Source of the DNA: an uncultured Planctomycetales bacterium
GTDB taxonomy: Bacteria; Planctomycetota; MHYJ01; JACPRB01
Direction: 5' to 3'
Assembly: GCA_964526305.1 (NCBI GenBank)
Contig: CAZGKV010000022.1
Coordinates: 41,550 to 52,060, forward strand
Length of the DNA stretch: 10,511 bases
Within the stretch, counting starts at the first letter, position 1. Each line of letters begins with the position of its first letter. Below, piece by piece: positions 7,801 to 9,464 of the stretch. The notes under the pieces are model-generated. The model saw only the letters and a program-made list of their open reading frames with translations. It did no database searches and was not told where the DNA came from. The position numbers and the translations under genes are program-made.

Positions 7801-8133
7801 CCCTCGGGAACGGCACAGTACGGGAGCGAAGGCGTCGTCGATCCCGTGACCCTGGGAACGTCGGTATCCGCCGGCGACGTAACGGCTCGATATGTGTGGC
7901 TGCGGGTTCTTTTAGACGATACCTCGAGCGCGGCCGTGAATCCGGACGCGTCGAACGTCCGGGACGTCACCGACGTTCAGGTGGGATACGGCGTGGTCCC
8001 CAGCCCGGACCCGATTCCGGCCCCGACCGGAACGCGCAACAGCGAGAAGACCTTCCATCTCGGCCGATGCGGGCTTCTGGGAATGGAAGCCCTTTTCCTC
8101 CTGGGATTCCTATGGATTCGGCGCCGCTCCTAG
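4840..8133 (+). CDS. Large secreted Kelch-repeat (beta-propeller) protein, 1097 aa, with N-terminal signal peptide and C-terminal Cys-Gly/hydrophobic/Arg-cluster sorting-signal-like tail
   Basis: GTG start at 4840 with GGGAG 8 nt upstream. The N-terminus MRCRSLGVILGGGAVVVLTLF looks like a signal peptide. Residues ~290-945 hold 13 tandem ~47-50-aa repeats with the Kelch-like consensus GHTSVAYNGYLYVIGGYDGS..L.DVQVAPINSDGTLG.WS.TT.F.T.R. A ~110-aa non-repeat domain follows. The protein ends ...TFHLGRCGLLGMEALFLLGFLWIRRRS* (stop TAG 8131-8133). Confidence 0.85.
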   Translation: MRCRSLGVILGGGAVVVLTLFRNGTPNPVLSSRGCSAPEVDRAIEKLELRGEVPPEEMRFEATKERYLFQAAFTASFSRDSAQVRVEGPDSAYPLEVSSVSSDFHPAELGAGTIRYRHREAALSALYRPTSSGVKEDIVVLSPETDLAPLLQWRLALKPGSEPRLESDGSIGIYGPHETLSGNIKIGDEKTAYLIAKAREHSPKSRLLYRFPAPVLVDAAGTKHANLARYELWRDCLVVRTEEAIRDLEYPISIDPTIVVSTTSEFNSIGNLEGMVSTAGDRVTRSPASTGRVGTWVGTTAFTTGRYGHTSVAHNGFLYVIGGYNNGTYLDNVQVAPINSNGTLGGWVVTTSLPMTIWGHTSVAWNGYLYVIGGYDGSMRRAEVQVAPINSDGTLGTWSTTTALGTARYRHTSVAYNGYLYVLGGDSGSNLNDVQVAAINADGTLGGWSATASFATVRWGHTSAAYNGYLYVIGGYDGSTYRYDVQSAPINANGTVGTWSGTTGFTTGRRAFSSVANNGFLYVIGGYQGSSPLADVQVAPINAGGAVGAWTPTTSFPSPRYSHSSVAHNGYLYVIGGFDGGYRNDIQVAPINSNGTVGSWTSTQAFTTAREGHRSVVHNGFLYVVGGSPATSSYLNDVQYSLIGVHGTVGSWSSMNSFTGTRFRHTSVAYNSYLYVIGGSDGTAKADVQVARLNEDGTVGSWSTTTALGTARYGHTSVAEKGKLYVIGGTGMSDLNDVQVAPINSDGTLGGWSSTTGFSTARYGHASAVYNGYLYVIGGFGSAYLDDVQVARINSDGSLGPWSTTTAFTTARVGHKSVVYNGYLYVIGGENGSNLGDVQFAALNADGTVGTWSTTMGYPMTSYGHAVVAQDGYLYLLGGNNSASQKDVKVAPINSEGALGCWTSINAFSSARYGHGAVSYNGFLYVVGGYDGTSYFNDVQSTTLWTPAARGYYSRQIDLGSDQPVNTILINGTSGLRGTVRLQYRLAPSGTAQYGSEGVVDPVTLGTSVSAGDVTARYVWLRVLLDDTSSAAVNPDASNVRDVTDVQVGYGVVPSPDPIPAPTGTRNSEKTFHLGRCGLLGMEALFLLGFLWIRRRS
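5716..7670 (+). repeat. Intragenic tandem array of 13 Kelch-repeat-encoding units, period ~141-150 bp (approximate bounds)
   Basis: Units share strings at the DNA level (e.g. tacaacggctatctctatgtgatcgggggata / gtgcaggtggcgccgatcaactccgatgggac recurring with small substitutions). Thirteen YV[IVL]GG cores were counted. The opposite-strand 638-aa ORF (5791..7707) is a shadow of this array. Confidence 0.8.
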
Positions 8134-9464
8134 AGCCGATCGACGTCCCCGCGGTCTTGAAGGCAGCCACGCTCTTCGCCGGATTGGCGCCGGAGGACTT
8201 GGACCGAATCGCGGCCGTCACGCAGGTGCGCCGGTTCGATGGGGACGAGGCCGTCTTTTCCGAAGGAGATCCTGCTACCTGCATGTACGTGATCGCCCAA
8301 GGGCGCGTGAGCATCGTCCGGAACGCCGCGGACGGCCAGGTCGTGAGACTGGCGATGCTCCGGATCGGGGACTTCTTCGGCGAGATGGCGATCGTGGAGT
8401 CGATGACTCGATCGGCCACGGCTCGGGCCCATCGAAAACCCGCGCTTCTCCTGGAGGTGGATCGGGGGCGCTTTCGCGAACTCCTCGGCGCGAATCCGGA
8501 CCTCTCCCTGCGCATCCTGGCTTGCGTGCTCGAGCGGCTCCGCCAGTCGAACAAGCGTGTGGTGGAAGTGGACCACGAGGCGCGGAAGTACGCCCCGACG
8601 CTTTCGGAGCGGGTCACTCGGGAATATCCGCATCCGATCGCCGTGGTCTTCCGCGAGATGGAGACGGCGGTCGACTCCTTGACCAAGCTCCAGCGGCTCT
8701 TCGAGACGATGGAGTCTTGCCTCCTCTATCTCCGGGCCGTCTGCATGGGGCTGTATCTTCGACAATCACCCGGCGCGCGGGAGTTGGATGCCGAGATCGG
8801 TTCCTCCCGCTTCGCTCCCACGCTGGGGGCTCTTCACCTCCTTGTGGGGCGCTTCCTCGATCACTTCGACAAGGGGGGTATGCCGGGGCTTCCTCAGAAG
8901 CTCCATGCGTGGTACTCGGCGAAGGAGCGGGACGCCAAGGACGTCGAGGGCATCCTGCGCGATCTCCGAAACGCCCGGAATCTTCTCAAGCACGGGTCGG
9001 AAGCCTCGCTCGACGAGCACGCGGCGGAGAAAGTTCTGGGGGAATGCGCGCCGAAGTTTCGTGACCTCCTCGAGTCGCTCTCTTTTCTACGCGACTACCC
9101 GCTCGTGTACATCCAGGGCATGGCGTACGGAGGAGGGATCTTCCGGTACACGGTGCTGAATTGCATGGGCGCGTTCCGCAGTTTTCATAGCGCGCGAATC
9201 GAAAGCGACAAGCCGTTCGAGACGGAGAAGCTCTATGTCCGGGATGGGGACGATCTTGTGCCGCTCACGCCTTGGATGGAGCTGCTCCGATGCGGGACGT
9301 GCGGGGATCGCGAGGCGGTGTTGATCCAGGTCTGGACACCGCAGGTTCTAAAGTATCTCGAATTCGCGCGCGGGCATCGTACGGAGATCAAGGAAGTGAG
9401 TCCCGCCGTGGCCAAAACCGTGACGCGATTTGTAGAAGCGGCGGAAGAAAAAGGGCGGGGCTAG
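8112..9464 (+). CDS. Cyclic-nucleotide-binding (cNMP/CAP-effector-type) domain protein with an uncharacterised ~300-aa C-terminal domain containing an R-N-x3-H (HEPN-like) motif; 450 aa
   Basis: The first ATG of the frame after the Kelch gene is at 8112 (MDSAPLLEPIDVPAVLKAATLFAGL...). It overlaps the Kelch CDS by 22 nt. TTG at 8157 is a non-overlapping alternative start. The part of the 7092..9464 ORF upstream of 8112 lies out of frame inside the Kelch gene and is rejected. Residues ~15-140 (LFAGLAPEDLDRIAAVTQVRRFDGDEAVFSEGDPATCMYVIAQGRVSIVR...IGDFFGEMAIVES..RSATARA) form a canonical cNMP-binding beta-barrel including the FGEMA(L/I) phosphate-binding-cassette-like segment. The C-terminal region is mostly helical and contains ...ILRDLRNARNLLKHGSEA... 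(R-N-x-x-x-H at 8976-8993). The stop is TAG at 9462-9464. Confidence 0.8.
   Translation: MDSAPLLEPIDVPAVLKAATLFAGLAPEDLDRIAAVTQVRRFDGDEAVFSEGDPATCMYVIAQGRVSIVRNAADGQVVRLAMLRIGDFFGEMAIVESMTRSATARAHRKPALLLEVDRGRFRELLGANPDLSLRILACVLERLRQSNKRVVEVDHEARKYAPTLSERVTREYPHPIAVVFREMETAVDSLTKLQRLFETMESCLLYLRAVCMGLYLRQSPGARELDAEIGSSRFAPTLGALHLLVGRFLDHFDKGGMPGLPQKLHAWYSAKERDAKDVEGILRDLRNARNLLKHGSEASLDEHAAEKVLGECAPKFRDLLESLSFLRDYPLVYIQGMAYGGGIFRYTVLNCMGAFRSFHSARIESDKPFETEKLYVRDGDDLVPLTPWMELLRCGTCGDREAVLIQVWTPQVLKYLEFARGHRTEIKEVSPAVAKTVTRFVEAAEEKGRG

Follow-up and report, generated by a model that had tools for sequence, protein, structure and literature searches.

We analysed a window of 10,511 nucleotides from an uncultured Planctomycetales bacterium (contig CAZGKV010000022.1, positions 41,550 to 52,060, forward strand), and within it the C-terminal tail of a Kelch-repeat protein encoded at 4840-8133 (+). 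This tail, called the CGL tail below, combines a Cys signature, a hydrophobic segment and a terminal Arg cluster. The open reading frame (ORF) is a real gene. A ribosome-binding site, GGGAG, stands 7 nt ahead of the GTG start codon; nine Pfam models of Kelch type are matched (E=1e-73 for the best), and 13 Y[VL][IVL]GG blade motifs follow one another at even intervals of about 50 residues. An identical protein product was called on independent ENA, JGI and Logan contigs. The following features were recognized.

4840..8133 (+): gene of the 1097-amino-acid Kelch-repeat protein bearing the tail (ORF list, translation, Kelch Pfam families)
4840..4905 (+): signal-peptide-like N-terminal segment MRCRSLGVILGGGAVVVLTLFR, with a basic start and then a hydrophobic core of 17 residues (top Kyte-Doolittle window, residues 5-21)
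5725..7740 (+): about 14 Kelch blades, corresponding to two propellers (13 Y[VL][IVL]GG motifs; Pfam Kelch_1, Kelch_6, PF24681)
7741..7989 (+): post-Kelch domain, residues ~968-1050, ARGYYSRQIDLG...DVTDVQVGY, common to Kelch homologues
7990..8067 (+): Pro-rich linker and residues before the Cys, GVVPSPDPIPAPTGTRNSEKTFHLGR (translation)
8068..8088 (+): signature C-G-L-L-G-M-E, residues 1077-1083, fitting the consensus C-G-L-[LVI]-G-[ILVM]-E
8068..8118 (+): 17-residue hydrophobic segment CGLLGMEALFLLGFLWI, signature included, a predicted membrane helix (mean hydropathy 1.97)
8119..8133 (+): basic cluster RRRS and TAG stop (sequence and translation)

Only two strongly hydrophobic stretches were detected in the protein (Kyte-Doolittle), at residues 5-21 and 1077-1093. 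The alignments of Kelch homologues obtained with phmmer extend to query residues 1050-1066, and the post-Kelch block was also seen in the homologues P0005, P0006 and P0010; the Pro-rich linker is not conserved in other tail carriers. Cys35 (SSRGC) was considered as a lipoprotein Cys and ruled out: it lies 14 residues past the hydrophobic core, without a lipobox.

The protein ends at 8056-8133 (+), a segment in frame with the ORF that holds its final 25 codons and the TAG stop codon. This segment reads HLGRCGLLGMEALFLLGFLWIRRRS, that is, H-L-G-R, the signature C-G-L-L-G-M-E, the stretch A-L-F-L-L-G-F-L-W-I and R-R-R-S before the stop. An earlier note on this DNA had described a tripartite tail here, with a short Cys-containing signature, a hydrophobic segment and an Arg cluster at the extreme C-terminus, lacking a PEP motif. 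Translation and hydropathy agree on this organization, and no P-E-P occurs in the sequence. The hydrophobic segment is likewise present; its length, however, is 17 residues and not about 18, and it contains the Cys-Gly signature as well as one Glu. The segment (C1077-I1093) is long enough for a membrane helix and is followed immediately by RRR.

Recurrence of the tail

A full-length phmmer search with the Kelch protein over 1.84 billion representative proteins returned 25,252 relatives, and the C-termini of the best 150 were inspected. One of them, P0028 (2442 amino acids, from a different organism, 68% GC), ends in KCGLTGIELLLVLALVAIRRRRR (fuller form ...KKKKCGLTGIELLLVLALVAIRRRRR). It shares C, G, L, G, E, L, I and RRR with the window tail in identical register, and the spacing from C to RRR is 17 residues in both. 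This homologue was retrieved by Kelch homology alone, independently of any tail pattern.

A codon pattern built from the residues common to the window and P0028 tails was then run over one genome per bacterial and archaeal species, for which by our own estimate about 2 matches would be expected by chance in 596 Gb. Fourteen loci matched. In 12 of them a long ORF contains the match in frame and stops 2-24 residues after it; in another (L018) the tail and a downstream protein form one in-frame fusion. The 14th locus, a 51-codon ORF on a 49%-GC Selenomonad contig, was rejected as a chance match. A relaxed codon pattern was used on metagenomes, the matches listed excluding metagenome 3300025157, from which the window comes; it yielded at least 60 or so further C-terminal tails, all on contigs of 60-75% GC. 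At least 73 distinct tails of the window form, C-G-L-[LVI]-G-[ILVM]-E-x-L-(8 residues)-RRR(R), were thus collected in total.

The consensus of the 73 tails listed (Cys=1) is C-G-L-[LVI]-G-[ILVM]-E-x-L-[LPA]-[LVP]-L-x-x-x-x-x-R-R-R-(R), in which C1, G2, G5, E7 and R18-20 were set by the search patterns, as was the C-to-RRR spacing of the scan-derived tails, so that the apparent invariance of these residues is circular. The Cys, both Gly and the Glu fixed by the pattern are also common to the two independently obtained examples, those of the window and P0028. Other positions were limited to NTN codons only, and among the tails listed these were occupied by L3 in 70/73, by L, V or I at position 4 in 70/73 and by L9 in 63/73. 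Two features were entirely unconstrained, namely a small residue (S, G or A) just before the Cys (53 of the 73) and a fourth Arg (42 of the 73). Met at position 6, as in the window, was found in 3 of these tails, Pro at position 8 in 11, and Pro at position 8, 10 or 11 in many. C-terminal location was never imposed by the pattern; almost all of the tails listed lie within 12 residues of the stop, and those of 12 of the 14 genome matches and of the 60 or so metagenome matches lie within 24.

A hidden Markov model (HMM) of 56 tails found elsewhere, from which the window and P0028 were left out, gave the window ORF 28.6 bits (E=9e-9, computed over the 182 six-frame ORFs of the window) and the second-ranked ORF only 3.7 bits; the tails in this model had been retrieved with a pattern derived from the window tail. 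A merely accidental tripartite look, in an otherwise ordinary hydrophobic C-terminus, would be in keeping with so short a sequence of low complexity, found once in ~34 kb of the organism's DNA. Such a chance origin is refuted by the recurrence of the tail, that is, by the E-value given above and by the 13 of 14 genome matches and the 60 or more metagenome matches in frame at the C-termini of long ORFs, and its probability is negligible. Similarity search with the last 217 residues of the Kelch protein gave one partial Kelch match only, and a protein word-index search with a 54-sequence tail profile gave a 35-residue fragment only, the word-index method being unsuited to the tail in both cases. 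No description of the motif came up in full-text searches of the literature, which also covered new CTERM classes.

The tail was found on many different proteins. Among the matches listed, 57 carriers with at least 200 upstream residues fell into 19 BLASTP clusters. Besides the two Kelch carriers (the window protein and P0028), Pfam identified multicopper oxidases (Cu-oxidase; L013, L022), Lactonase-like propellers (L014, L020), an fn3 protein (L015), a subtilase (Peptidase_S8; L016), a metallophosphoesterase (Metallophos; L017) and a protein with Ig-like (Big) and Glucodextran_B arrays (L021). By inspection, signal-peptide-like N-termini were recognized in the six genome-scan carriers with readable N-termini (L013, L014, L015, L016, L017 and L020). 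Three carriers are named at NCBI ('metallophosphoesterase family protein', 'S8 family serine peptidase' and 'hypothetical protein'), and none of these names cites a sorting domain. The genome-scan carriers are labelled Deltaproteobacteria/Myxococcota, Planctomycetota and Spirochaetales. The tail had been thought to hint at the lineage of its host; this hint is weak, because carriers bear several phylum labels and the tail pins down no phylum. The nearest organism-labelled homologues of an ABC ATPase encoded on the window contig come from metagenome-assembled genomes (MAGs) of Planctomycetota (67-68% identity), which is likewise a weak hint at the lineage.

The same signature on unrelated proteins is the hallmark by which processed sorting signals are defined (10.1101/2023.06.07.544157). 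Among the attributes of tripartite signals listed by Haft, C-terminal location, a signature, a helix with a basic cluster, signal peptides, unrelated carriers and homologues with differing tails were all found for the CGL tail. A further attribute, many copies per genome, was seen only in part: the ~34 kb of the window organism contain one tail; elsewhere, MAG CAZUJF01 has two tails (L015, L021), and so do contigs L124 and L128. On L128 a canonical CGLLGIE tail is accompanied by a shortened variant, CGLGFE (PLCGLGFEVALALAALRRWSARRS; ORF ending at 2400, +), with one residue fewer between Gly-Leu and Gly. The earlier note had likened the architecture to that of exosortase/archaeosortase substrates; such a sorting-signal reading, as opposed to a generic anchor, is borne out by CGLxGxE recurring in the same register at the C-terminus of at least 19 unrelated secreted groups. 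Because the tail recurs across unrelated proteins, its interpretation as a sorting signal is supported.

Relation to known sorting signals

NCBIfam release 20 (June 2026) covers PEP-, MYXO-, GlyGly-, CGP-, Synerg- and JDVT-CTERM and many newer tags; neither the whole window protein nor its last 67 or 33 residues matched any model at E<=10. On ten tails, no sorting-domain model of Pfam reached its cutoff. Nine other CGL tails scored 8-12 bits (maximum 11.7) on the MYXO-CTERM models TIGR03901.2 and TIGR03382, the cutoffs of which are 20 and 15.85. The lack of a match is not a problem of sensitivity, because control tails pass: four of the six tested Cys-containing tails of Kelch homologues exceeded the NCBIfam MYXO-CTERM cutoffs (21-27 bits), and four PEP-CTERM tails of neighbouring genes scored 17.9-25.9 bits on TIGR02595 (cutoff 16). 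MYXO-, PEP-, GlyGly-, CGP-, Synerg- and JDVT-CTERM were each rejected as assignments, giving at most weak matches below cutoff to the helix/Arg part, and so were VPDSG-, PTPA-, PVV- and GPS-CTERM and the LPXTG anchor, with at most weak matches of the same kind. By membership, the tail is neither MYXO-CTERM nor PEP-CTERM; it appears to be an uncurated variant of the known tripartite design.

MYXO-CTERM, the tag of myxosortase MrtX (TIGR03901, TIGR03382), is the class that the Cys-containing tail had been said to resemble. Both are tripartite, with a signature Cys, a helix and an Arg cluster, and both occur on many unrelated secreted proteins. In addition, at least 12 of the best 150 Kelch homologues end in MYXO-CTERM-like tails (GCGC or CGC, helix, RRRR), at the position equivalent to that of the window tail. 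As a statement of class membership, however, the resemblance was not sustained, with both models below cutoff and a Glu, often also a Pro, in the helix. It has been shown that the MYXO-CTERM helix has neither charged nor Pro residues and often GCGC (10.1101/2023.06.07.544157), whereas CGL tails have a single Cys, Glu in all those retrieved, frequent helix Pro and no Gly/Ser-rich spacer. MYXO-CTERM is itself restricted to Myxococcota and Bradymonadales and is accompanied by a genomic myxosortase (NF040914 core); CGL carriers are not confined to Myxococcota labels, some being labelled Planctomycetota, and no myxosortase was seen near the carriers surveyed. That the tail is a true but divergent member of TIGR03901/TIGR03382 is very improbable, with no match for the window tail and only 8-12 bits for its relatives against cutoffs of 16-20.

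PEP-CTERM, the tag of exosortases (TIGR02595, PF07589), shares with the CGL tail a motif at or in the helix, a conserved Glu and a terminal Arg cluster. Tails of both kinds co-occur on contigs, and genes for exopolysaccharide (EPS) lie nearby. Of about 68 non-redundant loci, at least 11 have PEP-CTERM genes no more than ~5 kb from the carrier; such genes lie directly downstream of CGL-tail genes in L113, L039, L088 and L042, and in L018 and L099 a cohesin-like PEP-CTERM protein is fused in frame after the Arg cluster of the CGL tail. An exosortase of no named subtype is encoded ~6 kb from the L113 carrier (8TM_EpsH 141 bits; XrtA 143 vs a cutoff of 208). At L142:4970-23689, in MAG CAZUJF01, a CGL-tail fn3 protein is encoded between Wza-like Poly_export and Wzy_C/TPR genes and pilin-type genes, the latter being two prepilin-type (N_methyl) pseudopilin genes and a PilM-like gene on the far side; this is a putative EPS plus type II secretion system (T2SS)/type IV pilus (T4P)-like envelope locus. 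These associations, together with Pro at position 8 in some tails, would fit a divergent PEP-CTERM flavour handled by an exosortase paralogue, in which the Glu of G-[ILV]-E-[PAV] stands for the Glu of P-E-P. We regard this as possible, if somewhat doubtful. No model of PEP-CTERM type reaches its cutoff on any CGL tail; P-E-P is absent, with Cys-Gly-Leu-x-Gly preceding the Glu; and the Glu lies 10 residues from RRR, as opposed to about 16-18 after PEP, which places the motif inside the helix and not at its edge. A single exosortase in ~0.5 Mb is, moreover, not significant.

Judged by its layout, CGP-CTERM, the tag of archaeomyxosortase MrtA (TIGR04288, Thermococcales), is the nearest formal analogue: it spans ~20 residues, and its Cys-Gly directly abuts the helix. 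It differs in being archaeal, in having Pro after Cys-Gly and in lacking a conserved Glu, and its HMM gives CGL tails no match. A Cys-Gly next to the helix without a spacer, and a Cys in both independent examples, would be expected of a new Cys-type signal that is recognized by a CPBP (Rce1-like) glutamic intramembrane protease, with the Cys modified and the chain cut after it, in likeness to the processing of MYXO-, CGP-, JDVT- and Synerg-CTERM. The MYXO-CTERM tails of the Kelch homologues at the same position point in this direction, as does the labelling of about half of the genome-scan matches as Deltaproteobacteria, Myxococcota or Myxococcales. It has been reported that MYXO-CTERM proteins need the T2SS (Guo, Haft and Wall 2025, PMC11980579). 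Pseudopilin and PilM-like genes occur near the L142 carrier as described above, and an MshEN-domain gene (L003:20208-20651, -) lies ~12 kb downstream of the Kelch gene; MshEN is the N-terminus of GspE/PilB-type ATPases, and the gene, situated at the edge of the contig as read, may point to a cluster for T2SS or T4P in the window organism. Against a protease of this type, the 26 multi-pass membrane proteins surveyed in ~0.5 Mb around carriers include no CPBP (PF02517) member, the carrier loci showed PEP-CTERM tails and no MYXO-type ones, all four Cys-type HMMs fail on the tails, and the Cys was set by the search patterns. We consider a Cys-type signal of this kind conceivable, though on the unlikely side.

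GlyGly-CTERM (TIGR03501) is processed by an intramembrane protease, rhombosortase. It resembles the CGL tail in having a signature of small residues where the helix begins and then Arg. The CGL tail, however, has no Gly-Gly and does not match the HMM at E<=10, and the sole rhomboid found nearby is generic and 5 kb off.

Proposed processing and candidate enzymes

We suggest that the last 21 residues of the Kelch protein, CGLLGMEALFLLGFLWIRRRS, probably represent one instance of a recurring and so far uncurated C-terminal sorting domain of tripartite build, which would undergo processing. The domain would consist of a signature C-G-L-x-G-h-E opening a short membrane helix, ten mostly hydrophobic residues, and the Arg cluster. 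In the proposed sequence of events, drawn by analogy from the characterised signals of this design, the Kelch protein would be exported by Sec via its N-terminal signal-like segment; its C-terminal helix would keep it in the inner membrane, RRR facing the cytoplasm. CGLxGxE, located in the helix's outer half, would be recognized by a dedicated sorting enzyme embedded in the membrane, which would then remove the helix, and the protein would stay attached, at or beside the Cys, to a lipid or envelope component and so be displayed on the cell surface. The RRR-inside topology is supported by L018, L099 and L023, because in each of these the reading frame continues past RRR into a signal-peptide-like segment and then a further exported domain. 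In L023:5437-12573 (+) the CGL tail CGLLGLEVLLLLSIGRARRS precedes a lipoprotein-like signal peptide LLALLSLSLLAC and a large protein, in what seems to be a further type of tail-to-signal-peptide fusion or else a case of a missing stop codon.

Several observations weigh against the sorting-domain reading, in addition to the circularity of the pattern-fixed residues described above. Topology, cleavage, anchoring and surface location we infer. No second tail and no candidate enzyme were found within ~34 kb of the window organism's DNA. The multi-pass membrane neighbours surveyed comprise one exosortase, one generic rhomboid and two lnt products, and no enzyme candidate recurs among them. The helix is short for either function, 17 residues with a Glu being unusual for a stable anchor and also for known sorting signals. 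Sequence inspection revealed no obvious signal-peptidase site in the N-terminal segment of the Kelch protein, which could therefore act as a signal anchor.

Contacts between helices typically involve motifs of small residues and a buried acidic residue. The tail could accordingly be read as a permanent C-terminal transmembrane anchor, with CGLxGxE serving helix packing or oligomerization (a Gly-x-x-Gly-like face and buried Glu) or contact with a membrane partner. The hydrophobic helix with its positive-inside Arg cluster fits such an anchor, and so does the lack of a cognate enzyme in the organism's ~34 kb and among the 26 neighbours. A permanent anchor is nevertheless unlikely: at least 19 unrelated groups, under several phylum labels, share the same 7-residue signature, a 17-residue helix with Glu would anchor poorly, and homologues carry at the same place a MYXO-CTERM tail, a class for which cleavage has been demonstrated experimentally in M. 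xanthus TraA (PMC11980579).

As to the enzyme behind the proposed sorting domain, an exosortase-family paralogue is a possible though tentative candidate. A glutamic protease of CPBP/myxosortase-like type, with the Cys-Gly bond as its target, would be a doubtful one, and a rhombosortase-like protease an improbable one. It is rather unlikely that the tail is not cleaved. The chances appear evenly balanced that CGLxGxE-helix-RRR is, taken as a whole, an undescribed class of prokaryotic sorting signal with a cognate enzyme of its own (from a new subfamily of exosortases or of CPBP proteases, or of another kind), acting in parallel to PEP-CTERM/exosortase in the same cells and widespread in uncultured GC-rich bacteria of soil, sediment and groundwater that bear the labels Planctomycetota and Myxococcota/'Deltaproteobacteria'.

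A bacterium's C-terminal sorting tags determine the set of proteins shown on its surface, and the earlier classes PEP-CTERM, GlyGly-CTERM and MYXO-CTERM each led to a new family of sorting enzymes. The CGL tail would mark large enzymes and adhesin-like proteins of abundant uncultured lineages, among them Kelch propellers, multicopper oxidases, subtilases and phosphatases, as probably surface-anchored, where current annotation gives 'hypothetical' or the catalytic domain only. A profile made from the 73 or more tails would improve this annotation, and phylogenetic profiling would make the hunt for the cognate enzyme testable. A surface assembly system that uses two signals is hinted at by the regular pairing of CGL tails and cohesin-like PEP-CTERM proteins.

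Neighbouring genes and conserved modules

Several CGL-tail genes have directly downstream of them a gene for a cohesin-like protein of ~200 residues, which bears a PEP-CTERM tail and a signal peptide. The loci are as follows.

L018:565-4437 (+): cohesin-like/PEP-CTERM locus
L099:2536-6330 (-): cohesin-like/PEP-CTERM locus
L113:8503-9249 (-): cohesin-like/PEP-CTERM locus
L039:3432-4181 (-): cohesin-like/PEP-CTERM locus
L088:2249-2857 (-): cohesin-like/PEP-CTERM locus
L042:497-1207 (-): cohesin-like/PEP-CTERM locus

The cohesin-like gene is followed by lnt in L113/L039 and in L032/L041. In the largest carrier cluster an Asp-rich, Cys-bracketed module, DG(L/I)xD(M/L)ADxxC(G/A)NPWSDNE, recurs directly before the tail. 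It was seen within the last ~45 residues of the tail ORFs in L009, L014, L019, L020, L034, L040, L052, L057-L059, L066, L093, L105, L108, L126, L129 and L138. By appearance the module could be calcium-binding or dockerin-like, and it could pair with the cohesin-like PEP-CTERM proteins.

Most of the other Kelch homologues among the best 150 (P0015-P0151) end in an unrelated conserved sequence, ...RLRGGK.F....LQPLDTC(G/P), which may be another uncatalogued anchoring or sorting feature.

In the window, the Kelch gene is followed by a gene for a cyclic-nucleotide-binding-domain protein (8112-9464, +; 450 amino acids, PF00027). It starts with an ATG at 8112, inside the Kelch gene, whose final 22 nt both genes share, so that the codons for IRRRS and the stop are read in two frames; because of this overlap, translational coupling of the two genes is suggested. 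Upstream, at a distance of 81 nt and on the same strand, a WD40 propeller protein of 300 amino acids is encoded (3856-4758, +), and two propeller proteins are therefore found in tandem. The N-terminal residues of the WD40 protein are hydrophobic, and no clear signal peptide was seen in it. The opposite strand carries a DoxX gene (3078-3512, -), which adjoins a gene for a 720-amino-acid protein (689-2851, -) with matches to Pfam MVP_shoulder (E=5e-32) and Vault_3, a putative bacterial major-vault-protein-like gene.

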